The position numbers and the translations under genes were made by a program. The notes under the pieces are model-generated. The model worked only from the letters and a program-made list of their open reading frames with translations, ran no database searches and was not told where the DNA came from. Shown one piece after another: positions 2 through 20,000 of a stretch of DNA of 53,851 nt. The stretch is from a virus (Duplodnaviria > Caudoviricetes), in the IMG/VR virus record IMGVR_UViG_3300022744_000036, positions 1 to 53,851 of that record, one strand, 5' to 3'. Each line of letters opens with the position of its first letter. Within the stretch, counting starts at the first letter, position 1.

Positions 2-1534
2 CAGAAGAAGGCATACGACGAGATGCTGCGCAAGTTCCGCGCGGACTGCGGCAGCGGCCAGATCACGGCGGTCAACGAGGCGGCCAAGCTCAGCAAGCTC
101 CTGCAGATTTGCTGTTTGCGCCATGATACTAACGTGCTAACGGAACGCGGGTGGGTTCCGATACATGACGTGTCGGCACGCGACGCCGTCTGGGACGGCA
201 CCGAGTGGGTGAGCCAGAAAGGCGCAGCCCTAATGGGGTACAAGCCCACCATTGATTGTGGGGGTGTGTTTGCAACGGAGGACCACCTGGTTCTTAGCGA
301 CTCCGGGTGGCTAACAGCGAAGGAGTTTGCGCGCGGTTATGCCAGCAAAAGACTTGACTGGGCAGAGGTTCGGTTACCTGACGGTGTTGCGTCGGGAGGG
401 GACCTCTGGTGGGGTGAACAAGAAGGCTCGATGGGCGTGCCTGTGCGATTGCGGGAACGAGGTTACGCGCGAAAGCCAGTACCTACGCAGCCGGCACAGA
501 ACCCACCCCCGCAGTTGTGGGTGTCACCACGGAAACGAAAAGCACAAGATGGCGGCATCTCGCCCGTACCGAACGTGGACGGGTATGCGTCGGCGCTGCC
601 TAGACCCGTTGGACAAAGACTGGCCGAATTACGGCGCGCGTGGCGTGACGGTGTGCGAGTCGTGGCGCAGGTCTTTCTCGGCGTTTTGGGCGGATATGGG
701 ACCGAGCTACCAAGACAACCTGACCCTTGGCCGCGTGGACAACGACGGACCCTACTCACCCGACAACTGTCGATGGGAGACCGTGCACCAGCAGGCCAAC
801 AACCGAAGAACGAACACTCTGGTAGCCACATCAAAGGGTTCGATGACGCTGAGCCAGGCAGCGAGGGCTTTCGGCTTGAAGCCGGTCACGCTGCTGGCCA
901 GGATACGTCGCTACGGTTGGACGCTGGAGAGGGCGCTGAACACCCCGCCGTCTACGACCTCGTCGACTGTGGCCCACGAAATCGGTTCGTCGTCAGGGGC
1001 GTAGATGGCAAACCACGTATAGTCCACAATTGCGGCGTGGCCTACGGCGAAGGCGAGGCCGAGATCCTCCTGGATGCCCGCCCCCGCATCGAGCTGGTCA
1101 AGGAGATCATCGAGGAGAGCGAGTCCAAGGTGCTGGTGTTCGTGCCGTTCACGGCAGCACTGCACAAGGTAGCCGAAGAAATCGCCAAGCACTACTCGGT
1201 GGAGGTGGTGTACGGCGAGGTGTCCAAGACTCAGCGGGACCGCATCTTCCACGACTTCCAGCACGCCAAGGACCCCCACGTCCTGGTGGCCGACGCCCGC
1301 ACCATGAGCCACGGACTGAGCCTGACAGCGGCCAGCACGACCATCTGGTACGGCCCCCCTAACGGGAACGAGACCTATCTGCAGGCTAACGAGCGCACAC
1401 CCCGCCCGGGGCAGAAGCTCAATACCCTGATCGTCAACATCGAGGGCACCCCCGTGGAGCGCAAGGTGTACGAACGACTCCGAGGGCAGACCAAATTGCA
1501 GGGGCTGCTGCTCGACATGCTAAAAGGCGGTTGA
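2..1534 (+). CDS. SNF2-like DNA helicase, C-terminal part (5' truncated), intein-containing
   Basis: Frame is open from position 2. KLLQIC/CG-VAY motif, then helicase-C motifs KVLVFVPF, HGLSLTAA and YLQANERTPRPGQ. Confidence 0.9.
   Translation, partial: QKKAYDEMLRKFRADCGSGQITAVNEAAKLSKLLQICCLRHDTNVLTERGWVPIHDVSARDAVWDGTEWVSQKGAALMGYKPTIDCGGVFATEDHLVLSDSGWLTAKEFARGYASKRLDWAEVRLPDGVASGGDLWWGEQEGSMGVPVRLRERGYARKPVPTQPAQNPPPQLWVSPRKRKAQDGGISPVPNVDGYASALPRPVGQRLAELRRAWRDGVRVVAQVFLGVLGGYGTELPRQPDPWPRGQRRTLLTRQLSMGDRAPAGQQPKNEHSGSHIKGFDDAEPGSEGFRLEAGHAAGQDTSLRLDAGEGAEHPAVYDLVDCGPRNRFVVRGVDGKPRIVHNCGVAYGEGEAEILLDARPRIELVKEIIEESESKVLVFVPFTAALHKVAEEIAKHYSVEVVYGEVSKTQRDRIFHDFQHAKDPHVLVADARTMSHGLSLTAASTTIWYGPPNGNETYLQANERTPRPGQKLNTLIVNIEGTPVERKVYERLRGQTKLQGLLLDMLKGG
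113..1030 (+). mobile_element. Intein (306 aa) in the helicase
   Basis: Block A CLRHDTNVLTERG, block B TEDHLV, block F VYDL, block G IVHN followed by Cys+1. Removal restores KLLQICCGVAY. Confidence 0.92.
339..1004 (+). CDS. HNH-family homing endonuclease nested in the +1 frame of the intein
   Basis: [42 protein letters not shown] and [23 protein letters not shown] motifs. AAGGAG at 320-325. Confidence 0.88.
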   Translation: [221 protein letters not shown]

Positions 1535-2371: not shown

Positions 2372-3370
2372 ATGTCCGCCATCATCCCTCTGACCCCCGG
2401 CACCGTCCTGCCCGCCTACCTCAAGAACCGCGACGCGCTCGCCACCATCAACTCGGACGTCATCACCCATGGCACCGGGTTCCCTGTCCTGTCCATCAAG
2501 GGCAAGGTCTTCACGTTGGTCAAGGACAACGAGCGCAAGGTGCTCACCCGTCCGGAAGACCCCGACGAGGTCCTGCAGAACATCACCCTCACGGCCATCC
2601 GCGCCAACACCAAGAGCCGCGTGTTCTACGCCAAGGCGTATAGCGAGGACGACAGCGAGGGCGCCAAGCCCTCCTGCTACTCCAGTGACGGCGTGTCCCC
2701 GGCGGCTGATGCCCGCGAACCCCAGGCCAAGAAGTGCGCCGTCTGCCCGCACGCCGTGTGGGGCTCCAAGTCGGGCAGCGAGGGCAAGGGCACCGCGTGC
2801 ACCGTGAACACCCGCCTGGCCATCGCTGACCCGGACCAGATCCTCGCCAGCGAGAACGTGGAGCCCTACCTGCTGCGCGTGCCGGCTGGCAGCCGCGCCA
2901 ACTTCGCCGATGTGGTCAAGGCCGCCCAGGCGCGCGGTATCCCCTACAACGCCCTGGTGCTCAAGGTGGGCTTCGACAAGGAGGCGCCGAGCCCCAAGCT
3001 CACGTTCAAGCTGGTCGGCCTGGTGGACGACGCGGTCTACAACAAGATCACCGAGCTGTACGAGAGCGACGACGTGAAGGCGATCGTGGGCCTGGCCCCG
3101 GTGGCGGCTTCCGCCCCTGCCCTGCCGGCCCCCAGTGTGACCGAGGACGACCTGGACGCCGCCCTGGCGGCCAAGGAAGCCCGTGCGGCCACCGAGAAGG
3201 CATCCAAGGCGGCGAAGACCCCTGCCCCTGCCCCTGCCCCTGCCCCTGAGCCGGTGGCTGAGAAGCCCGCCAAGGTGGCCAAGCCCAAGGCGGAACCCGC
3301 CGCCACGTCCGGCGGCATGGACGACCTGCTGGGGGACCTCGACAGCCTGCTGGGTTCGACCGACGACTGA
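2372..3370 (+). CDS. putative single-stranded DNA-binding/annealing protein with Zn motif
   Basis: GGAG RBS. PSCYSSDG, CAVCPH..WGS and GTAC motifs, Ala/Pro linker and acidic C-terminal tail. Confidence 0.65.
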   Translation: MSAIIPLTPGTVLPAYLKNRDALATINSDVITHGTGFPVLSIKGKVFTLVKDNERKVLTRPEDPDEVLQNITLTAIRANTKSRVFYAKAYSEDDSEGAKPSCYSSDGVSPAADAREPQAKKCAVCPHAVWGSKSGSEGKGTACTVNTRLAIADPDQILASENVEPYLLRVPAGSRANFADVVKAAQARGIPYNALVLKVGFDKEAPSPKLTFKLVGLVDDAVYNKITELYESDDVKAIVGLAPVAASAPALPAPSVTEDDLDAALAAKEARAATEKASKAAKTPAPAPAPAPEPVAEKPAKVAKPKAEPAATSGGMDDLLGDLDSLLGSTDD

Positions 3371-3375
3371 TGCAC

Positions 3376-3397
3376 GAGGGGCCCGGCCGGGCCCCTC
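3376..3397 (+). terminator. GC hairpin after the SSB-like gene
   Basis: Perfect palindrome GAGGGGCCCGGCCGGGCCCCTC; weak U tract. Confidence 0.5.
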
Positions 3398-3412
3398 TCT
3401 ACAAGGACACCG

Positions 3413-3682
3413 ATGGAACTTGACTTCTCGCTCATCAAGCGTGCCGGCGTCTCCCAGCGGGAGTTCTCGCAGTTAGCGGGTGTATCGAGAGTGACCACTA
3501 ACCTGTGGGTTGCGGGTAAGATGAAGCCCCACCGCCTACAGGCCGACAAGATCGCCGCAGTCATGCGCGCACTTGAGGCAGCCGTCACCCATGAAGAACT
3601 CCCACTGCCCGGGGCTATCCCGGTCGCCCGGCGCATTCCCACAATTCAGCGCATCCTGCAGCAGCGCGGTGCGCCCCTCTGA
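3413..3682 (+). CDS. XRE/Cro-like HTH protein
   Basis: GVSQREFSQLAGVSRVTTNLWVAG helix-turn-helix; AAGGA RBS. Confidence 0.8.
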   Translation: MELDFSLIKRAGVSQREFSQLAGVSRVTTNLWVAGKMKPHRLQADKIAAVMRALEAAVTHEELPLPGAIPVARRIPTIQRILQQRGAPL

Positions 3683-7098: not shown

Positions 7099-7110
7099 GG
7101 GCCCCTTTTT
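7087..7110. terminator. intrinsic terminator between convergent blocks
   Basis: Palindrome AGGGGCCCCTAGGGGCCCCT followed by a T run. Confidence 0.75.
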
Positions 7111-10100
7111 ATTGCGGCATCGCTTTCTGCAGCTTGCGCTCCCGGTCGGCCTGTGCCTTGGGGTACTTGAGCAACGTCGACAGGGGCTGGCGCTTCATCT
7201 CCTCGGGCTGGTCGTTGAACCAGTGGCGCACGTTGTCCTTGCCATCCTGCAGCTCCTGCCAGTCCTGGCGCAGCTTGGCGGCCTTCTCGTAGTCGTCGGC
7301 CTTCATCGCCTCCGCGTAGCGGTGCTCGATGTCCTTGGTGCGCTCCTGGTAGAACTGCCGGACCTCGTACTGCTGGCTGCGCAGCCACTCCATGTTCTTG
7401 AACGAGGTGCTCTTGAGACCAACCGCGTCGAGCGCCAGGGCAAACTCGTTGACGTCATCCGGCTTGACCATCACGTCGCCGTTCTTGAGCGTGTAGCCCT
7501 CGTTGGCGATGCGGGCAGCCTTCATGGCGTCGGCCGGGCCCTTGGGCATGAGCTGCTCGACCCCACGGTAGAAGTCCCCACGTTTGAAGTAGCCGACTCC
7601 TTCGGCGAACCGGCCGGCCTGCGACAGCGTAGGGCCACCCAGAATACCGCCCAGAGTCTGGGCCATCTCGCTGGCGCTGCCGAACTTGAAGTCGGTGTAG
7701 GGCGCGATGCTGAACACCTTGTCGTCACCCAGCTTGGAGGACATATCCAGGCCCACCATGTTGAGCGGGCCGTGCAGGAGCAAGTCAGCCACGAACGGGT
7801 CGCCGATCCACTCGCGCATCTGGCGCTCAGTGCTCCACGGCTCATCGTCGCCGCCGAACAGGGCGCCCATCACCAGGCCCACCAGGTTCATCGCGGGCAG
7901 GCCCAGCACGCCGGCCGCCATCGAGGTGTGGAACAGCTTGAACGCCAGCATGCGCTTGCCGATGGCCCGCTCCTCGGGGGTTGCGCCCGTGAACGCCTGC
8001 TTGAACGCCCGGGTGTAGAGCGCCGCCATCATGAACTGGTACTTGCGGTACTGCGTCATGACCTTGGGCAGGCGCTTGAGGAGCAGGGGTGCGCCCGTGC
8101 GCGAGAAGTCGCCCTGCGTGGTCTGCAGGATCCGCACTGCGTATTCCTGGGCGGCCTCTTCCGTGCGCCCCTTGGCGATCGCCATGTTGTAGGCCGCCGT
8201 AGCCGCAGCCACGCGGTTGGCCGTCTCCACCGCACGCGAGACCTGGCGCAGCTTGTGCAGCGCGGTGCGCACGCCCTTGGACGCCGCGTCCACCGGGGCG
8301 TAGCCCGTGCGGGTCGCCTCGAAGTGGGTGAGGTCCTCGTCCAGGCCAATGTCCAGCACGCCCATGTCAGCCGCGCGCTGCAGGGCACCACGCAGGCCCG
8401 GGTTCTTCACCCGCTCAAGCTGCAGCTGACCCCACACCCCGGTGTCCTTGAGGGCCTTGTAGCCGTCAGACAGGTGCTTCCACGCTCCGGAGTAGTCGCC
8501 GAAGTCTGCCGCCAGCTTGGGCAGCGTGACCATGAACCCCTGCGTCGCGTTGGCGACGTGGTAGCCCAGGCTGGTCAGCAGCTGCCAGGCCGACGTGAGG
8601 GCCATCGCCCGGTCGGTCCAAGGGGTCTCCTTGTACGACAGGTTCTCGCGGTAGTGGTCCGCGATGGCGTTGAACTCGTTCTGGTGCTCGCGCTTGCCCG
8701 TCAGCGGGTTGCGCGCCTCGCGCTGCATGCGGTAGAACGCCTCGTTGATCTTGCCCCCATGCTCCAGGTTGGCCAGCCAGTTGGCATCCGCTCGCGCGTG
8801 CGAGAGGAAGGAGCGGACCATGTCACTGTCGTAGCCCGCGCGGTTCATGCGCTTGAGCGTCGAGGTGCGGGCGTGGTGCTCGTCGATCGACTGGAAGTAC
8901 ATGTCCTGCACCATCTTGGTCAGGGCTTCCTTGGTGGCCTTTGGCATCGCCTCATCCGCACCCATGGCGGCCAGCAGGCGCTGCAGCGTCGCGTGCTTCG
9001 GGGCCATCGAGTCCGCCAGCTCAGCGGACTTCTCGAAGTGATCGGACCAGTCGAAGCCGCCGCCACCGGCCTTCGAGTTCTTCTCGGCGAACAGGGCGGC
9101 CTGACCGGGCGTGTCGAAGTACGACACCACGTAGTGGTTCGGGTCCTGCTTGAGGGCCTTGACCCGGCTGGCGTCGTCGGCCTGCTCGGCGTCCCGCAGC
9201 TCCTTGGACTTGAGCACCGCCACGTAGTCGCCGAAGCGCTTGAGGGGGGCGTAGGGCTTGCCGTCCGAGCCGGCACCCATGCTGGTGAGCTGGTCCACAT
9301 CGTCGAGCTTGAGGGCCTTCATCAGGCCCCGCTTGACCTTGAGCATCTTCTGCCCATGGGCGAACACGTCGCGCACCACTTGCTGCTCCTCGGGCTTGAG
9401 CAGGTTGAAGTCGCGCTGCAACGTCGGGTCCACCTCGTACTTGACGGGCTCGCCGGCCTTGTCCTCGGCGGGGAACAGGTCCTTGTGCTGCGGATCCAGG
9501 GACGGGTCGTAGCCCCACTTCTGCTGGAAGGTGGACTTGGACAGGAACTCGTTGACGTTCTGCGTCCCGCCAGGCAAACGCTCGGCAGCGGCAGCGACGC
9601 GCTCGGCGTCCTGCTTGAGCTTGTTGCGGGTAGCCTGGACATCCTGCACGCCCTTGTACCAGTCCTTGATGGAGGGCAGGCTGCCCTTGAGGTCATCCAC
9701 CAGGTCGTGCAGGAACGACAGCGAGTCGGCCAGTCGCCGTGCCGTGTGGGTCACGTCGGTTACCACCTGGGACCCCGTGGCTCCCGCCACTCGGCGGGCC
9801 GCAGCGGACACCGGGCTCGGGATGGGCCCGGCGTCGGGCTCGACAGAGAAGCGAATGTCGGGGTTGGGGCCGGTCGCGCCCTCTCCCGCGTAGCTGTACT
9901 TGCTCTCCGTAGAGCCGCCCCGGGTGTCTTCCCCGAGCTGGAAGTGGGCGGCGCCGTAGGCCATGTCCACCACGTCCTGGGCGGTCAGGCGCACCGTGCT
10001 GCCAAGCCTCAGCTTGGCCAGGCCCTTCTTGAGGGCGGCGACCAGGGTGCTCATCCAGCGCTCGACGTTCGTGCGGTACTTCATGGCCGTGGGGTCCACC

Positions 10101-13100
10101 CCGGCACGCACCGCCTCCTCGACGAAGTAGGCCGCCAGCTCCGAGCGCTTCTGCTCGTCGAGCGTACCGGCGTTGATGATCCGGGCCAGGGCCTTGCGGG
10201 CAAGACCCGCCTCCTGACTGCCGTCCGTCATCTCGGACCAGTCGAGGATCTGGTCGGTCAGGCGCTGGAACTCCTTGACGGTGAGGATCTCCTCCAGGCC
10301 CAGGTGCACGCCGGCCTCGTGCATGAGCACGGAGCGCGCGTTGCCCGGCTTTATGTTCCCAGCGATCAGGTACACCCGCCCTCCCGTCACGAACCCCTGC
10401 ACCCGCTTGGCCTTGGGGCCTTCCTTGGACAGCGACTTCTGCACGCGTGGAGGCAGCTCGGAAGCGTCCTGAACGACCACCAGGCGGGGCGACTGCAGCG
10501 CAAGACCCAGCCCCTTGAGTTCCGCCTTGACGGCATCGACCGTGCTGGACTGGCGTCCGGGGCCGGCGACCTTGGACAGCTGCGGCCGCTCCGCCGACAG
10601 CTCACCCCGGCTCATGCGGGACAGCGTATCCTTGGACAGGTGGCGGGCCGGCTCCTGGGCTACTTCGCGGGGCTCGACGTCGGTGACGTCCTGCTCTGCT
10701 CGGCTTGCAGCTCCTTGATCTGTTCGTTCAGCTTGGGGTCCACCTCCCTCCCGTTCAACTGCCTGAACTCCTGTATTAGCTTGAGTTCGTCCAGAGTTGG
10801 CAGCGGGTACTTTCGTGGGAGGGGCCTGCTTGTGGTCATTGGAAATCCTCAGTTGGAATTTGGCTAGGAGAGCGGCTTCAGTATTACCGATCTCCCCCTC
10901 ACCGGACTTCAGTTGGGTGCCGAACTCGGAAACCCAGTCCGCCTTCATGGCGTCGTGGAGATCTTCCCAACTCGGGATCACCGCACCGCCTGACTCCGCA
11001 TTGTCCACGGCTTGAGCGCGCCACTCGTCGGCCGCCATTTCGGCGAGCGGGGAGCCTAGCAAGCGTCGGATGTTTTCTGCACGCTTCGGCGCGTTCAGAG
11101 TGCGCAGGTCCGTAACGATGGCGCCTTCCGGGACTACCACCGCGTCCTCGCGCTTGGCGGGTGCGGGGCCTGCTTTCCGGAGAATGTCGTCAGCCTCCGC
11201 TGCCAGTTTGCGCTGCGCAGTGGTTGGGGCGTCACCAGTCAAATGCCCGTCTCCGGCGGCGGCCCCCAGAGTGTCCTCCACCCGGAATCCGGGGGCGTCA
11301 CCGGCCTCCACGTTGTCCAGGCCCAGCTCGCTGGCGTTGATGGCGTCGGGGCTAACGGCGCTGGCCAGCGCCACGCGCTCGTCGATGCCGAAGTCCTTGA
11401 GCGACGAGGTGATCGCCTGACGGGTCACTTTCTTGCCCGTGCGCTCGCTCTCGACCCGCGCGATCTCCGCAAACGGCATGGGGTCGCGGCCCTCGACCAG
11501 GATCGGGGCGCCCGTGTCCGGGTCTTCCGTGATGTCCCAGCCGGTGGCCAGCAGGATGCGGGACTTCTGCAGTGGGGTGGCGTGCAGGATCTTGTCCGAT
11601 ACCTGCTGGGCGGTCACCGCGCGCTCCCGGCCGGAGCGTCCCACAGTCGTCGTCTTGTTGGGGTCGATGCCGGCTACTGCAGGGGCGACGCCACTTCCAC
11701 CTGGTACAGCCACACCCGCTGCGCGGCTTGCTCCAGGTGCCGGGGTATCGACAGCACCATCAACTCGCTGGCCGGCAACGACAGGTACAGATCCTGCAGC
11801 TCGCTCGCCTCGTAGGGGAGCAACACCCGGTTGTCCACCAGTTCCTTGAGCCACGGGTTGAGCTTGGCCGGTTGTGCGGACATCTGCGGCTCCTTGAGTC
11901 GTGACGGGGGTGATGGGCTTGGCATCCGCCTCGGCTTGCAGGCGAGTGTGCTCGGCCTTGGCGTCGATGAACTTGCGCACGGAGGCGAACCGGCGGGTCT
12001 TGAGTTCCCCGATGCTCTCGGCGTAATCGCCGTCCTGAATCTGGCCGGACTCGTGCAGCGCCTTGAGTTCGCCGAACAGCCCAACGGCCTTGTCGCCCTG
12101 AAGCCCGAAACCGGCGGCCTCGGCGCGCAGCGCCTCAATCCGTGCGGCGTGCTCGTCAGCCTGACGCTTGATCTCGTCCTGACGGGCCTTGTTCGCCAGC
12201 CACACCTGGCGGGCCATGGCGGCCCCCGGGTCGGTCATGTTCTCGGTATCGACGGGGTTGCCCGTCAGGTTGCCGAAGGAATCCGCGTGGACCGTGTCAC
12301 CCTGGAGGTTGACGGCGGGCATCTGCAAGGTCGGGGCGACGGCGCCCTCAACGCGAGGGTCCACCGGGCGGCCATCGCCAGCATACGGGCGCGGATCGTC
12401 GATAGCCAGGGTCAGGCCGGACGTATCGATGGCGGGGATCTGTGTACCCGACGGGCGCCCCTGCGGCAGCTCCTGTTGGGGACCGACCACATCGAGGCCG
12501 CGCGGAATCGCAGTCACACCCTCAAAGCCCTGGGTAGTAGTCCACTCGGGAGTCAGATCGCCAAGCGCCGGGTCATACGCCCGGTTCGGGATGGGGGCCT
12601 GCAGCGGCGCGCCCGTGTCGACACCCTCGAAACCCTGCGCCGTGGTGAGCCCGCCGGGGTTTAGTAGGTCCTTGCCGCCCGTCTGGTCGATCGACGGCGT
12701 GGGGGCGCGACGCCCGGAGCGGATTCCGCCCGGCAGGCCCATGAGACCTTCAACCAGGCCCCCCGCCACCCCGGAGTTCAGGCGCTTGGAGAACGCATCG
12801 TCGGGGCTCACGCGGCCGTTGTAGGCCATCTCCATCTCGTTCTGGAGCAGCTCACTCGTGGCGCCGGTCGCGCCTTGCGTGGCACCGGCCTTGCCGATAC
12901 GGGTCAGCAGGTTGCCCTGGAACCCGGCGCCGTGTCCGATACGCCCGACCAGCATGGCCTCGGGCAGGGTCTCCGTGAGGGCGTAAGGCAGGCCGCCCGC
13001 CAGCGCAGCAGCGCCCGAGTTCGGATCGCCCCCTTCGACGGCTTCCTGGTACAGCGAGCCGACACCTTGGCCGTAGTTGAACGCGCCGCCGCCGACTACC

Positions 13101-13612
13101 TGCTTGGCGAAAGTCTGACCGGCCTCCAAGGCCGCGCGGCGCGCAGCAAATTCGGAGCCGCCGGTAGCCGCAGCCTCCGCCACGCGAGCGGCCATCCCGC
13201 CGCCACCAAGAGCCCTGGGGAGCAGAGCCGCCCCACGAGACAGCGCCGCCGGTACCGCCACTTCCGGGACCACGAGGCCCGCCGCAATGGCGCCGCCGAT
13301 GTTCGGAACCTGCTTGGCCACCTGGTAGGTGGCGTAAGGGAGCCACTTGCTCGGCTTGTCCCACACGTCCTCGACGCGCTCCAGGTCCGGGCGGCCGTTG
13401 AGCTGCGACTCCCGCTGGTTGCGGTCAGCCTGCTCGTTGAGCCAGTCGCGGGCACGATCGGCACCAAAGGTGTCGGCCATGGCCCCGAGCGCACTGTAGC
13501 CAAGACCCTGTAGATCGTCGGTACCGGACGACAGGCCCGCCACGAGCGCATTGCGCTCCGGGCGAGGGCCCAGGTCAAAGCTCTGGAGAATTCGACCTTC
13601 GATGACGGGCAT
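7109..13612 (-). CDS. giant internal virion/ejection protein of the polyvalent type
   Basis: 2167 aa, last gene of the virion operon. HEAGVH zincin-like motif and YAPLKRFGDY (PLxRFG) motif. Confidence 0.8.
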   Translation of the reverse strand: MPVIEGRILQSFDLGPRPERNALVAGLSSGTDDLQGLGYSALGAMADTFGADRARDWLNEQADRNQRESQLNGRPDLERVEDVWDKPSKWLPYATYQVAKQVPNIGGAIAAGLVVPEVAVPAALSRGAALLPRALGGGGMAARVAEAAATGGSEFAARRAALEAGQTFAKQVVGGGAFNYGQGVGSLYQEAVEGGDPNSGAAALAGGLPYALTETLPEAMLVGRIGHGAGFQGNLLTRIGKAGATQGATGATSELLQNEMEMAYNGRVSPDDAFSKRLNSGVAGGLVEGLMGLPGGIRSGRRAPTPSIDQTGGKDLLNPGGLTTAQGFEGVDTGAPLQAPIPNRAYDPALGDLTPEWTTTQGFEGVTAIPRGLDVVGPQQELPQGRPSGTQIPAIDTSGLTLAIDDPRPYAGDGRPVDPRVEGAVAPTLQMPAVNLQGDTVHADSFGNLTGNPVDTENMTDPGAAMARQVWLANKARQDEIKRQADEHAARIEALRAEAAGFGLQGDKAVGLFGELKALHESGQIQDGDYAESIGELKTRRFASVRKFIDAKAEHTRLQAEADAKPITPVTTQGAADVRTTGQAQPVAQGTGGQPGVAPLRGERAAGSVPVVAGQRVDGAVDTPAPGASRAAGVAVPGGSGVAPAVAGIDPNKTTTVGRSGRERAVTAQQVSDKILHATPLQKSRILLATGWDITEDPDTGAPILVEGRDPMPFAEIARVESERTGKKVTRQAITSSLKDFGIDERVALASAVSPDAINASELGLDNVEAGDAPGFRVEDTLGAAAGDGHLTGDAPTTAQRKLAAEADDILRKAGPAPAKREDAVVVPEGAIVTDLRTLNAPKRAENIRRLLGSPLAEMAADEWRAQAVDNAESGGAVIPSWEDLHDAMKADWVSEFGTQLKSGEGEIGNTEAALLAKFQLRISNDHKQAPPTKVPAANSGRTQANTGVQAVEREGGGPQAERTDQGAASRAEQDVTDVEPREVAQEPARHLSKDTLSRMSRGELSAERPQLSKVAGPGRQSSTVDAVKAELKGLGLALQSPRLVVVQDASELPPRVQKSLSKEGPKAKRVQGFVTGGRVYLIAGNIKPGNARSVLMHEAGVHLGLEEILTVKEFQRLTDQILDWSEMTDGSQEAGLARKALARIINAGTLDEQKRSELAAYFVEEAVRAGVDPTAMKYRTNVERWMSTLVAALKKGLAKLRLGSTVRLTAQDVVDMAYGAAHFQLGEDTRGGSTESKYSYAGEGATGPNPDIRFSVEPDAGPIPSPVSAAARRVAGATGSQVVTDVTHTARRLADSLSFLHDLVDDLKGSLPSIKDWYKGVQDVQATRNKLKQDAERVAAAAERLPGGTQNVNEFLSKSTFQQKWGYDPSLDPQHKDLFPAEDKAGEPVKYEVDPTLQRDFNLLKPEEQQVVRDVFAHGQKMLKVKRGLMKALKLDDVDQLTSMGAGSDGKPYAPLKRFGDYVAVLKSKELRDAEQADDASRVKALKQDPNHYVVSYFDTPGQAALFAEKNSKAGGGGFDWSDHFEKSAELADSMAPKHATLQRLLAAMGADEAMPKATKEALTKMVQDMYFQSIDEHHARTSTLKRMNRAGYDSDMVRSFLSHARADANWLANLEHGGKINEAFYRMQREARNPLTGKREHQNEFNAIADHYRENLSYKETPWTDRAMALTSAWQLLTSLGYHVANATQGFMVTLPKLAADFGDYSGAWKHLSDGYKALKDTGVWGQLQLERVKNPGLRGALQRAADMGVLDIGLDEDLTHFEATRTGYAPVDAASKGVRTALHKLRQVSRAVETANRVAAATAAYNMAIAKGRTEEAAQEYAVRILQTTQGDFSRTGAPLLLKRLPKVMTQYRKYQFMMAALYTRAFKQAFTGATPEERAIGKRMLAFKLFHTSMAAGVLGLPAMNLVGLVMGALFGGDDEPWSTERQMREWIGDPFVADLLLHGPLNMVGLDMSSKLGDDKVFSIAPYTDFKFGSASEMAQTLGGILGGPTLSQAGRFAEGVGYFKRGDFYRGVEQLMPKGPADAMKAARIANEGYTLKNGDVMVKPDDVNEFALALDAVGLKSTSFKNMEWLRSQQYEVRQFYQERTKDIEHRYAEAMKADDYEKAAKLRQDWQELQDGKDNVRHWFNDQPEEMKRQPLSTLLKYPKAQADRERKLQKAMPQ
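10660..10839 (-). CDS. nested 59-aa gene in the +1 frame of the giant virion protein
   Basis: MTTSRPLPRKYPLPTLDELKLIQEFRQLNGREVDPKLNEQIKELQAEQSRTSPTSSPAK. GAGGA 6 nt upstream; GC3 bias shifts to this frame. Confidence 0.55.
   Translation of the reverse strand: MTTSRPLPRKYPLPTLDELKLIQEFRQLNGREVDPKLNEQIKELQAEQSRTSPTSSPAK
11674..11883 (-). CDS. nested 69-aa gene in the +1 frame of the giant virion protein
   Basis: MSAQPAKLNPWLKELVDNRVLLPYEASELQDLYL... AAGGAG 6 nt upstream; GC3 bias shifts to this frame. Confidence 0.65.
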   Translation of the reverse strand: MSAQPAKLNPWLKELVDNRVLLPYEASELQDLYLSLPASELMVLSIPRHLEQAAQRVWLYQVEVASPLQ

Positions 13613-15281: not shown

Positions 15282-16082
15282 TCAGAACAGCCACTTCTTC
15301 ATGGCCAGCCCGCTACCGATACCCAGGATCGTGTTGAACGGGTCGTTGGCCGAAGCCAGCTGGTCTTGCTGGTTCTTGTAGTTCGCCTCGGCGTTCCACA
15401 TGCCCGTCGCGTTAGAGCCCATGGCCCCCGCCATCGAGCCAGCCGCGCTGAAACCGGCGTTGAGGCCGGACAGCCCAGAGTTCACGGCGGTGAGGCCGGA
15501 CATACCCAGCGACGCGCCCGTGGCGCCCAGGCCGGAGGCCATCGACGGGAACCCCGACAGGATGTTGGCCGCGTTACTCTTGAGCTGCAGGCCCTCGGCC
15601 CGAGCCGCCTCGCTCACCTTGCGACCCGCCAGCACCTTGGCCAGGGCCTCGTTCATGTCCATCTGGTTGTGCAGGCCGGCGTAACGCCCGTCCGCTGGGT
15701 TGACCCCCACGCGCGCAAGGTCCCGCAGCTGCTGGCCACGGGCCGAACCGAACGCCTGCGTGATGTCCGCGTTGGCCTCACCCATCAGGGTGTTGCGGCG
15801 GTCTTCCTGGTTGAACTGGCGGGCCTCGTTGACCAGCGGGTCGATCGCGGCGGTGTACTTATCGCGCATGTCGAGCGCGTACTTGCGGTCTTCCTGCCCT
15901 TGATCGTAGGCCGTGCGTGCGGCGTCCAGGCCGAACTGCATCTGCTGGCGCTGCAGGGGCGCGAGCTGCTCCGTGTTGGCCAGCACCCGGCTGATGGCGT
16001 CGTCCTGGACGCCCATCGAATGAATCTGCGCGTCGACCAGCCGGGGATCCGGGGCGGGTGCGCTGGAGGACTTAGCGCCCAT
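15282..16082 (-). CDS. internal virion (pilot-like) protein
   Basis: MGAKSSSAPAPDP start and Gly/Ala/Ser-rich C-terminus, typical of the small ejection protein after a GNAT gene. Confidence 0.7.
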   Translation of the reverse strand: MGAKSSSAPAPDPRLVDAQIHSMGVQDDAISRVLANTEQLAPLQRQQMQFGLDAARTAYDQGQEDRKYALDMRDKYTAAIDPLVNEARQFNQEDRRNTLMGEANADITQAFGSARGQQLRDLARVGVNPADGRYAGLHNQMDMNEALAKVLAGRKVSEAARAEGLQLKSNAANILSGFPSMASGLGATGASLGMSGLTAVNSGLSGLNAGFSAAGSMAGAMGSNATGMWNAEANYKNQQDQLASANDPFNTILGIGSGLAMKKWLF

Positions 16083-16503
16083 AGCGTTCTCCCAAGAAGC
16101 GGCAGTCGTCCCGCCACATGGAGTAGATGATGACGTCCGAGCCATCCTCGGACGCCTGCTTGAGCCGGGCTTCCGGCTTGAACCCGAGGTGCTCCACCAG
16201 CCGGCGCGAGGCGGCATTGCCCTCGCTCACGTAACCGCTGACTCGCTTGACGCCCATCTCGTTGAACGGGTACTCGAAGCTGTAGCGCAGAAACCCCCGC
16301 GTCATCCAGGAACTGCCGGGCTCGGCGGCGACGTGCATCCACACGTTCTGCCCGTTGAAGCCCTCGTACAGCACGCCCGCTTCCAGCTCGCCCCCGCGCT
16401 CCAGGCCGATGCCTTTCATGCCGCCAACGGGTTGCATGGGCATGTGGCGGCTCACGTAGGTGTAGACGCGCAGCGGGTCAGAGATGACGCGGGTGGAATT
16501 CAC
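16072..16503 (-). CDS. GNAT-family acetyltransferase (virion operon)
   Basis: YPFNEMGVKRVSG..N.ASRRLVEHLGF..E motif. Confidence 0.8.
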   Translation of the reverse strand: MNSTRVISDPLRVYTYVSRHMPMQPVGGMKGIGLERGGELEAGVLYEGFNGQNVWMHVAAEPGSSWMTRGFLRYSFEYPFNEMGVKRVSGYVSEGNAASRRLVEHLGFKPEARLKQASEDGSDVIIYSMWRDDCRFLGERYGR

Positions 16504-16805: not shown

Positions 16806-17063
16806 CTAGTGTGGGTTCTTCGGCGCGCCCTCGGTCTTGGTCGTTGCCGTGGGGTCAGGCGTGGGCGCGACCGGAATCAGGTGCTGCGCCAGCGTCATCA
16901 CGCCGACGATCAGCGCGGGGGTCAGGCGCTGGCCCTCGTTGTCCTGCAGCTGGGCCTGGACGATCTGCAGCACATGGTCGCGCGCCGCGCGGGGGATCAG
17001 GCCGTCAAAGGCCGGGGCCAGGCTGGCGCCTGGCATCGTGGGGCGGGAGTGCAGGGGGTGCAT
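16806..17063 (-). CDS. hypothetical protein (possible tail fibre chaperone)
   Basis: TGATG coupling to the upstream tail gene; MHPLHSRPT... Confidence 0.55.
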   Translation of the reverse strand: MHPLHSRPTMPGASLAPAFDGLIPRAARDHVLQIVQAQLQDNEGQRLTPALIVGVMTLAQHLIPVAPTPDPTATTKTEGAPKNPH

Positions 17064-20000
17064 CAGTTGGCCCTCCAGGCCAGAATCTCGTAAAGGGTGC
17101 CGTTGTCGTCGTACTCGATCCACGTCGGCGCGCCGGTGTAGGTGCCGGGCTTGGTGGACACGCTCGACGGGATCGACACGGTGGCACCGCCGCCCGCGTT
17201 GACGTGCAAGGTGCGCCACGCCCCGTCGCTGGCCAAGATCTTTCGGCCCACGCCGTCCGGCTTGCCGATGACCGTGCCCGCATAGGTGATCCAGCCCACG
17301 TCGAACGACGCGTTGCCCGAACAGCGGAAGAATGGGTCGCTCTGCGACTTCGCGGCGGCATAGCCGTCGGAAAACCAGATCGGCGACCCCGCGACGTTGA
17401 GCGCGCCCGTCTCGACCTTCAGCGCCGCCGAGCGCTCGGCGTAGATTTCCAGAATCTGCGCGCCAAGCGCGGAGTTGGTCCCCGTGAAGTCGTCTTCCAT
17501 CAGCACCAGCGGGTTTTGTCTGTAGGTAGACCCCGCTTTCTCGAAGTACGCCAACGGGGTATAGGCGCCGACGCTGGTGTCAATCCCGAACACACCCTGA
17601 CCGCCCGTGTACGTGCCAGCCTTGAGCGCCGCCATGCTGACCGTGCCAGTGACCAGCAGCGAGCCGTCAATCACTTGCGTGAGGACCGACCACGAGCTGT
17701 TGCCGTTCGTCGAATACGTCCCGTCGTTGCTGTACGTCGTGCTGTAACTGGTGCCGTTGCTGAACACCACCGTATCGCCCTTGATCGGAGTCGTCGGCGT
17801 GAGGCCGGCCACAGCGGCGGCGATCAGTGTCGTCGCCTGAGACTTGTACGAAGCGGAGCCAGCGCCGGAGCCATTGTTGTAGGTGCTGGTGTAGGCCACA
17901 TTCGTGTCGTAGACCGTGCGGCTACCTCGTGTGCCCGTGCTTCCGCTCTTGGTCTTGGCGATCGTCTGCACCAGATTCAGCGTCACATCCGCGCCGTTGG
18001 CTCGGCGCACGGTAACCGGGAACGTGATGGTCACCACATCCGTCGCGGAGTCCATGGCACTGGCAACCGCCACCGTTGCCGTTGTCGTGGTGCTTCCGCT
18101 GATCGCGCCTACCGTGATCTTTCCGGCCGGGGACACCGTCGGCGTGCCGATCGTGAACCGCCCGGCGGCCAGCGTGGTCGAGTGGTAGGTGAGGTACGTC
18201 GAGCCTTCAAGCATGCGGATCGTCGTCCCGCTGCCCGTGTAGCTGGTCACCGCCCCGGCGCTGTCGGCTGGTACGGTGTGGTTCTGGTTAGAGAACTCAT
18301 AGCTGATGCCATCGACCCCGGCGACCTGCTTCGTGATCGTCAGCGGGACATCGCGATACACCGATGGCGCTGCGGTCAATGCGACCCGGAACGTGATCGT
18401 CGTCTGGTTCGACGAGTTCGCCCACGACCCGGAACCAGTCACGGCAAATGCTCCCGTGCTGCTGTTCATCGTCGCAGTGAGCGTCGATGGGTTCGCCTGG
18501 ATCGAGTACGTCAGGCCCGACGTGATCAGCGACCCCCCTTGGTACAACTGCAAGGAGCCCGCCGCATTGGACCAGGATGTCACGGCCCCGGTACTGTCAG
18601 CCGGAACGGACACGCTCTGCCCCGTGGTCAGGATCGACAGGTAGGGCTCCTGGCCATCCGTGATGCGCAGGATTCGAACGGACTTCGTGGCAAGCGAGCC
18701 AAGAGTCGCCGTGACATCAACGTATTGGACCGGGTTGCCGGGCAGGATGAAGTTCGCCGCCGTGAGGGTGCGCGAGTCGCCCGAGCCCGTCAGGTAGCTT
18801 GTCAGAGTGGCGAGCACGGACCCTGTGGACGAATACGCGGTCGCCGACCAAGTAACCGTGCCCGCCAAGCTAGAAGGGGTGCGCGTGACCGTGAAGGTCG
18901 CGCTCTGCCCGCTCGACGGGTACTCCGCGCCCGTGGTCGTGAACGCGAAGTTGGCGTTGTTGGTCGTCAGCGTGATGAGCTGGGCATCAGCGCCCGTGGC
19001 GCCGGCCCGTACCCTCGTGATCGTGAACACCGCGTCGCGAGTGGCGCCGCTGCTATGCGTCGCGCGGAAGGTGATCTGCGCTGTGTCGCCCGTGCTCCAT
19101 GTGATGCTGGAAACGCCGTACTCCCCCGTGGATGGGTTGATGCAGGAGCTTCCGGCATAGGGGCCCGACACCGCCGTGACGCCCGTGAAGCTGACCTGCG
19201 AGTACGTCACGCCACTGGACAGCGTGGTGCCGCCTTGCGTGATCTTGAACTGCTGCGGCGCGCTCGCGCTGTGCTGCGCCCCGGAGTAGTCAGACACCGT
19301 GCCGTCGTTGGCAGATTGCAACGCGACAGATGGCTTGGTCAGGCCCGAGATGATCGGCTCGGCGCCATCCGTCAGGCGCACGATCCGGACCGTGGAAGAA
19401 AGCGCGCCGACCGTAGCCACCACGTCCACATATTGCACGCTGTTGGAGAACGACCCGCCCGGCTGCATGAAGGCGGTGGACGTGAGCGAACGGGAATCGC
19501 CGGATCCCGTGAGCGTCACCGATCCGAGAGAGCTGCTACTGGAGTTGTACGCGGTAGCGGTGAACGTCGCTGTGCCTGACAGCGATGTCGGCTGCCGTGT
19601 CAACGTGAGCGCGGCGGCCTGTGCCGCAGGGTACGCGGCGCCAGCGCTGTCGAGCCCCATCGTCAGCGAGGACGATGTCAGGAATACCGCGTTGAAGTCC
19701 GTCCCATCTGTCCCGGCAAGCTGCTTGGACACCACCAGGGCGATGTCCCGGTAAGAGCCGGGGTCAGCCGTCAGGGCCGCTCGCAAAGTCACGTTCGACG
19801 TGGTGGCGCTGGAAGTCCACCAGCCGGAAGGCGAGCCCGGGAAGGACAGCGAATACTGGCCGTAGGTGGCGCCCGACGTGTTGCTGATCGTCACGCCCAG
19901 GCTGTCCGGGTCGGAGTGCACAGAGAACGTCAGGCCAGACGACTGGAGCACGCCGCCGTAGTAGACCTGCATGATGCCGGTCTTGGCCGATCCGAAGCTG

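Follow-up and report, generated by a model that had tools for sequence, protein, structure and literature searches.

In phage lambda, the i-spanin gene Rz contains the o-spanin gene Rz1 in its +1 frame, and overprinted genes are exemplified by phiX174. In small viruses, overprinting yields two proteins from one stretch of DNA read in different frames (PMC8227390). In Escherichia coli, the microprotein GndA is encoded by an out-of-frame alternative open reading frame (ORF) within gnd and is reported to act on the product of its host ORF (bioRxiv 10.64898/2026.10.22.760973). Here, we describe N1, an ORF of 59 amino acids embedded in the +1 frame of a giant PLxRFG virion-protein gene. It is found in an uncultured virus record of 53,851 bp and 65% G+C (IMG/VR record IMGVR_UViG_3300022744_000036, analysed over its whole length and referred to as the window). 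From this analysis, N1 is probably a real, separately initiated small gene. The evidence for this consists of intrinsic signals, a helix-loop-helix model of the product, a second, similarly arranged embedded ORF (N2) of this host gene, and the signs of selection on the arrangement in relatives.

N1 has the layout of the Rz/Rz1 type: it is a gene of about 60 codons on the same strand as a larger phage gene, lies wholly inside it in the +1 frame, has its own ribosome binding site and start codon, and falls on a flexible region of the host protein. Unlike Rz1, a lipoprotein with a signal peptide and a lipobox cysteine, N1 contains no cysteine, hence no lipobox, and no signal peptide, which sets it apart from the o-spanins. 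Its host is a 2167-amino acid virion protein rather than a spanin, and at least two embedded genes are found in this one host gene. Like GndA, N1 is an out-of-frame small ORF in a larger gene, and the role of GndA resembles that of a cognate inhibitor or chaperone, which the initial annotation had proposed for N1. Unlike GndA, which is encoded in a cellular metabolic gene, N1 is situated in a phage virion gene. No report of embedded genes in giant PLxRFG or DarB-like genes was found in searches of the literature outside subscription journals.

Layout and coding signals of N1

The host gene (7109..13612, minus strand; P0002) is a single open ORF. Its product belongs to the giant phage proteins that contain a PLxRFG domain: residues 1453-2120, in the C-terminal third (7253..9256, minus strand), match NCBIfam NF032893 with 248 bits compared to a cut-off of 100, and the C-terminus is labelled “DarB-like” by PHROGs. 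The protein is modular, and only the C-terminal part can be aligned widely in relatives; distant relatives of the PLxRFG domain exist in cultured phages. A homolog search with residues 780-1080 returned the window's own protein only, so that the collections searched contain no close relative of this part that could serve for a frame-specific test on N1. Similarly, blastn of positions 9800-11800 against cultured phages gave no match.

N1 (10660..10839, minus strand; P0001) extends from an ATG at 10839-10837 to a TAG at 10662-10660. A Shine-Dalgarno (SD)-like GAGGA (10846..10850, minus strand) precedes the ATG with a spacer of 6 nt, and a TGA (10851-10849) shuts the nested frame four codons upstream of the start. 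The arrangement of GAGGA, 6 nt and ATG at the opening of a +1-frame ORF is thus as the initial annotation had described it. The switch of the host frame to codons ending in A or T, opposite a nested frame with G/C-ending codons, is likewise borne out by the G+C content at third codon positions (GC3) of both frames. Across 10822-10703, host-frame GC3 is 0.25, compared to 0.84 for the whole gene, and GC3 of the +1 frame is 0.78-0.93. The low-GC3 host-frame linker, with codons dictated by the nested frame, spans 10700..10830 (minus strand) and lacks hydrophobic residues; across N1 as a whole, none of the 60 residues of the host peptide is L, I, F, M, W, Y or C. Only 1 of the 60 host codons across N1 begins with T, compared with 211 of 2038 elsewhere in the giant gene. 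A reading in which the nested ATG is at present the true start of a separate downstream gene was set aside, the host frame having no stop.

The coding character of the frames was assessed by a codon log-odds score trained on the window's own long ORFs and calculated in 45-codon windows. In the confident genes, the score is +29.0 +/- 11.4 for host frames (n=9134) and -33.9 +/- 11.8 for +1 frames (n=9115). At N1 the signs are reversed, with +22.4 for the nested frame and -24.7 for the host frame. When 30 ORFs (11,604 codons) were scanned, two internal +1 segments stood out, both in the giant gene, namely N1 and a segment at 11920-11665; two further flags fall on the 5´ ends of ORFs whose starts are probably over-extended. 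The second internal segment corresponds to N2 (11674..11883, minus strand; 69 amino acids; P0005), a member of a conserved embedded family, which has the strongest +1 alternative-frame coding signal in the window and an AAGGAG (11890..11895, minus strand) 6 nt upstream of its ATG.

This pattern could also arise by chance, if an Ala/Gly/Gln-rich linker with odd codons happened to appear coding in the +1 frame. Long shadow ORFs are numerous in high-GC genomes, host codons that begin with G or C automatically raise GC3 of the +1 frame, and many SD-led alternative-frame ORFs of at least 40 amino acids lie in the +1 frame (380, compared to 11 in +2). Such a compositional artefact does not, however, explain why the host codons end in A or T at this place, nor why only the N1 and N2 segments were flagged in the giant gene and the interiors of the other confident genes. 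The +1 score at N1 is about 4.8 standard deviations above the +1-frame mean, a strong SD-ATG is found at the onset of the signal, and the predicted N1 product is confidently helical and amphipathic. Taken with these points, a chance ORF is a very unlikely explanation.

The start site is itself uncommon. When a strong SD-ATG is defined as AGGAG, GGAGG or GAGGA 5-8 nt upstream of an ATG, 27 of the 1287 ATGs on both strands qualify, including both embedded starts. Gene starts account for most of these, and about six appear spurious (in 107.7 kb of strand); a 4-mer SD is used by 18 of the 30 confident genes. SD-like sequences are also known to stimulate frameshifting, as in prfB and dnaX, and the GAGGA could by analogy stimulate a programmed +1 ribosomal frameshift yielding a truncated giant protein with an alternative C-terminus. 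This would be difficult to reconcile with the TGA that closes the nested frame four codons before the ATG, or with the TAA found directly before the ATG in several relatives. Furthermore, the stretch from the SD to the ATG has no evident slippery or hungry-codon site, and the embedded ORFs of relatives use ATG, GTG or TTG as start codon, with about 4-10 nt between SD and start. Frameshifting is accordingly given very little credence.

An assembly or sequencing error in the metagenomic contig could also have made the frame pattern, and the window is indeed an uncultured virus record. A contig from a second assembler (Logan) is nevertheless identical over 10400-11100 (0 differences, 0 gaps, depth 18.3; the run may be the source sample and hence not independent), and the same architecture is seen in many independent records. 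We consider an error of this kind to be hardly credible.

The predicted product of N1 has an N-terminus that is basic and rich in proline, followed by a helix-loop-helix core and a tail of Ser, Thr and Pro. In the AlphaFold2 single-sequence model, helices at residues 16-28 and 35-50 are joined by a loop, with a mean predicted local distance difference test (pLDDT) of 80 and values of 86-94 over residues 11-50. The amphipathic helix noted in the initial annotation is consistent with this model. With respect to sequence, N1 is an orphan. A search with phmmer against 1.84 billion representatives gave only one marginal match (E 9e-4), to a repeat protein whose repeat we take to be SAP-like. Neither tblastn nor phmmer against all fetched loci of relatives (see below) found a homolog, phmmer matching N1 alone, and a pattern scan of viral contigs produced 65 matches, none of which was confirmed. 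There was no usable match in the ESM Atlas, and no family for N1 or N2 in Pfam, PHROGs or NCBIfam. Foldseek of the N1 model against the PDB found nothing at E<=0.001. Assignment to the SAP/HeH group is not supported, with no Pfam match at E<=1 and SAP domains at Foldseek ranks 2 and 18 (E 3.8 and 8.3).

Embedded reading frames in related phages

The layout of N1 and N2 recurs in relatives. Alignment scans with the HExGxH module, a conserved module immediately downstream of N1, were used to fetch 158 loci, which yielded 112 distinct giant ORFs of sufficient length for scanning. By codon score, +1-frame segments were flagged in 28 rows and +2-frame segments in 8. The flagged +1 segments occur mostly in higher-GC loci, where the score has power. 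With L168 dropped as near-identical to L167 and adjacent segments merged, the 28 rows were reduced to 23 distinct +1 segments. An SD-led start is found within -20..+10 codons of the onset in 15 of the 23, compared to 874 of 8608 random control +1 positions (binomial p 3e-10), and several of the eight misses have SD-led starts just beyond this interval. In the closest relative with the same module (L001, identical to L012), the segment flagged is the equivalent linker, which contains a +1 ORF of 68 amino acids that starts with GTG, 7 nt after a GGAG.

Coding-like segments in the +2 frame were also observed near the C-terminal part of the giant ORF, at a similar position in five loci (L016, L018, L030, L094 and L109; host codons about 2130-2370) and at codons 1969-2068 in L029.

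The embedded ORFs form at least four families, conserved across 37-65% GC, with sizes of 44-143 amino acids and with host linkers of low complexity. The MPFKSKAQ family, named after its N-terminus (alignment A3; L014, L015, L017 and others), comprises 20 rows from loci of 38% to 64% GC, the LPGWEQ family 14 rows, and family D (L005-7, L010, L149-L162) 7 rows by the first clustering and 9 distinct copies after a search with a hidden Markov model (HMM). The HMM of the N2 family (alignment A2) matches 15 rows, every one in the +1 frame of giant genes. A copy was regarded as embedded if it lies in the +1 frame of a giant ORF open through the copy and for at least 100 codons on either side. By this definition, 20/20, 12/12, 9/9 and 11/12 distinct copies of the four families are embedded, the odd copy being at a locus edge; of the 53 distinct copies overall, all 52 with enough flanking DNA are embedded. 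The embedding also holds in low-GC genomes, in which 5-11 stops interrupt the third frame across this span.

N1 shares with N2 and with the MPFKSKAQ, LPGWEQ and D families the type of host gene, the +1 phase, the SD-led start and the low-complexity linker, and differs from all four in having no sequence similarity to any of them. It has no match to the N2-family HMM, which does match N2, and it falls short of membership in family D (E 13, 4.5 bits against the family HMM). BLASTP among N1, N2 and the embedded ORF of L001 revealed no meaningful similarity, with E 0.062 over 9 residues between N1 and N2 and nothing at E<=100 between N1 and its positional equivalent in L001.

Substitution patterns indicate which of the frames is under constraint. 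Between L045 and L051, mismatch rates at host codon positions 1, 2 and 3 are 0.32/0.34/0.51 in the flanks and 0.31/0.16/0.16 in the embedded ORF. The corresponding rates between L065 and L046 are 0.54/0.52/0.59 and 0.23/0.17/0.18. In both pairs the phase of substitution switches between flanks and nested region, and the nested region is the more conserved. In ten hand-picked pairs, with about 617 sites per position, mismatches number 147, 132 and 214 at nested positions 1, 2 and 3 (p 8e-6), and in nine of the ten they are most frequent at nested position 3. At the protein level, nested-frame identity exceeds host-frame identity in 53/55 pairs of the MPFKSKAQ family, 9/10 of family D and 21/28 of the LPGWEQ family. 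Judged from these comparisons, the embedded architecture is conserved and under purifying selection in the relatives.

A profile of the MPFKSKAQ family identified 2474 relatives among small proteins (23-100 amino acids searched), some of them on contigs >100 kb. Every relative that carries a source name is called “hypothetical”, and Pfam had no matching family; a tblastn search of cultured phages with a peptide of the family gave no match. The MPFKSKAQ family, at least, is on this basis a real and widespread small protein. Seventeen embedded peptides of relatives (ten plus seven) had sub-threshold matches only in Pfam and PHROGs. The N2 profile, run against the protein collection, matched 24 proteins, mostly of 66-68 amino acids and all from contigs of 500-4253 bp. 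The results with both profiles accord with the embedded ORFs being real proteins. The restriction of the N2 family to such contigs can be explained because the giant ORF is truncated there, and elsewhere the gene callers forbid overlap. Embedded genes are in general invisible on long contigs, since long same-strand overlaps are forbidden by gene callers, and the recurrence of the hidden layout in many related phages implies a class of small phage proteins that is missing from annotations.

Comparable ORFs are present in cultured phages. In Sinorhizobium phage PBC5, Ochrobactrum phage POI1126 and Agrobacterium phage Atu_ph08 (host C58), the giant DarB-like genes contain +1 ORFs of 67-124 amino acids that are SD-led and lie in comparable low-complexity linkers. 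The ORF in PBC5 orf23 encodes 67 amino acids (L170:5620-5823). Those of about 100 amino acids in POI1126 gp30 (L171:1676-1993) and in the giant gene of Atu_ph08 (L173:1247-1555) are homologous to each other. A second embedded ORF of Atu_ph08 (L173: about 7670-8044) has a C-terminal motif in common with the PBC5 ORF. The GenBank feature tables of the three phages list no coding sequence at the embedded positions. These phages have laboratory hosts and make the idea of embedded genes directly testable.

Shorter forms of the giant protein were observed in two loci (L003:739-4407 and L020:3530-7972), where a protein consisting of the module and the PLxRFG domain starts about 180-224 amino acids before the His-Glu motif. 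In L020, this protein is preceded by a separate small ORF (3109-3537) that overlaps its start.

Origin and function of the embedded layer

The main rival to a functional N1 is an out-of-frame relic. By this account, the segment once shared the reading frame of the downstream giant protein, or formed the beginning of a separate gene further downstream, and neither the ORF nor its SD-ATG is functional today. An upstream 1-nt indel and a 5-nt duplication would have put the segment out of frame, and the spacer would tolerate any sequence. Several observations speak against N1 as a working gene, and a number of them are what a relic would leave behind. Host-frame GC3 recovers near 10700, about 13 codons ahead of the N1 stop, and at this point there is a 5-nt tandem repeat of two units and one base (10691..10701, minus strand), which may be read as an indel scar. 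With one unit fewer, the nested frame would be in phase with the downstream host frame, as expected of a frameshift relic. N1 is an orphan, so that the comparisons above bear on its counterparts and not on N1 itself. In the N2 family, amino acid identity is higher in the nested than in the host frame in only 10/21 pairs. The score thresholds and the ten pairs compared above were our own choices. Finally, an HNH-endonuclease region is found out of frame in an open helicase ORF of the same genome, showing that such remnants or insertions occur here. The shorter protein forms of L003 and L020 also fit the relic account.

On the other side, a relic requires that a strong SD-ATG, with the frame closed by TGA four codons upstream, be placed at the onset of the signal by chance, when the window contains only the six or so spurious sites of this kind. 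The same layout is seen in N2 and in relatives in which the nested frame is demonstrably selected. The repeat is built of the common codons CAG, GAG and AGC, which makes it weak as a scar, and the codon signature of N1 is undecayed. On balance, a relic is unlikely, and a separately initiated gene is the preferred reading of N1.

The helicase ORF (2..1534, plus strand; Pfam Helicase_C at residues 363-470) deserves a closer comparison. It has no stop across about 700 nt in which its own frame has a poor score and the +1 frame encodes the HNH endonuclease (327..1004, plus strand; PHROG 374, E 6e-56). The start of the insert in the host frame matches an “endonuclease” PHROG (E 6e-11). We read the insert as a probable homing-endonuclease insertion or frameshifted intein domain. 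It resembles N1 in being out of frame within an ORF that stays open, and differs in that the HNH region has clear homologs and N1 is a small orphan.

If N1 is a gene, 30S subunits would bind the internal GAGGA and start at the ATG at 10839 on the giant gene's own mRNA, giving rise to the 59-amino acid protein; we infer that N1 is translated. The overlapped stretch of the giant protein, free of hydrophobic residues and presumably disordered, would be a spacer between folded modules and could tolerate what the nested frame dictates. The linker contains no stops because host position 1 is nested position 3, and the G/C endings of the nested codons bar host codons that begin with T; for the same reason the phase is almost always +1. 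The host would in this way be confined to codons for Ala, Gly, Glu, Asp, Val, Gln, Pro, Arg, His and Leu with A/T-rich third positions. For N1, the expected outcome is a linker rich in Ala, Gly, Gln, Glu, Pro, Arg and Thr with A/T-ending codons, which matches the hydrophobic-free stretch.

In small-virus overprinting, the new frame is usually the compositionally atypical one. Here, it is the embedded frame that is normal and the host linker that is atypical and disorder-like, a contrast suggesting that the giant ORF reads through older small genes. Since the embedded frame has the codon usage normal for the genome and the host linker does not, we infer that the embedded genes are the older layer.

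More speculatively, the giant PLxRFG and DarB-like virion proteins of many tailed phages might be mosaics that read through pre-existing small genes, with an embedded layer of at least five families and orphans like N1 that is co-expressed with the giant protein and in part acts with it; we put this forward as a tentative model. The -1 “shadow” frame of a small gene with G/C-rich third positions would be free of stops, allowing neighbouring virion-protein genes to fuse across it. In one frame the small gene would then supply a linker, and in the other it would continue to work as a gene. Its product could be a partner in packaging or ejection, or a co-injected factor. It is a guess, which we regard as possible but doubtful, that N1 itself is a partner in assembly or ejection of the giant protein with which it would be co-expressed, and not an unrelated passenger gene. 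If the embedded ORFs are translated, the giant ejected proteins of a wide group of phages carry hidden small proteins from the same message, with bearing on virion assembly, DNA ejection and possibly anti-defence. They would also provide a natural system for studying dual coding in disordered linkers and the assembly of giant multidomain proteins.

The module beside N1 and other features

The initial annotation placed N1 next to a zincin-like domain and suggested a real small protein, possibly a cognate inhibitor or chaperone of this effector domain during virion assembly. The small protein stands as the best-supported reading, and the inhibitor or chaperone role is left without support. The neighbouring domain is the HExGxH module (9632..10531, minus strand), and its motif HEAGVH (10321-10304) is of the form HExxxH and not the HExxH of zincins. 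No Pfam family, and hence no peptidase family, was matched at E<=1 by the module (five of five members tested). Its best match among PDB sequences was insignificant (E 0.23, two designed proteins), and tblastn of the module against cultured phages gave no match. A zincin label for the domain is not supported. Relatives with the same HExGxH module have unrelated embedded proteins in the equivalent linker. Complex prediction for the module (alignment A1) with N1 gave a score of 0.13 (mark 0.32), which bears on binding neither way.

Elsewhere in the window, the ORFs at 15282-16217 and 16806-17219 (both on the minus strand) have 5´ ends with a coding-like score in a different frame. The starts listed for them probably lie too far upstream and overlap the neighbouring genes.

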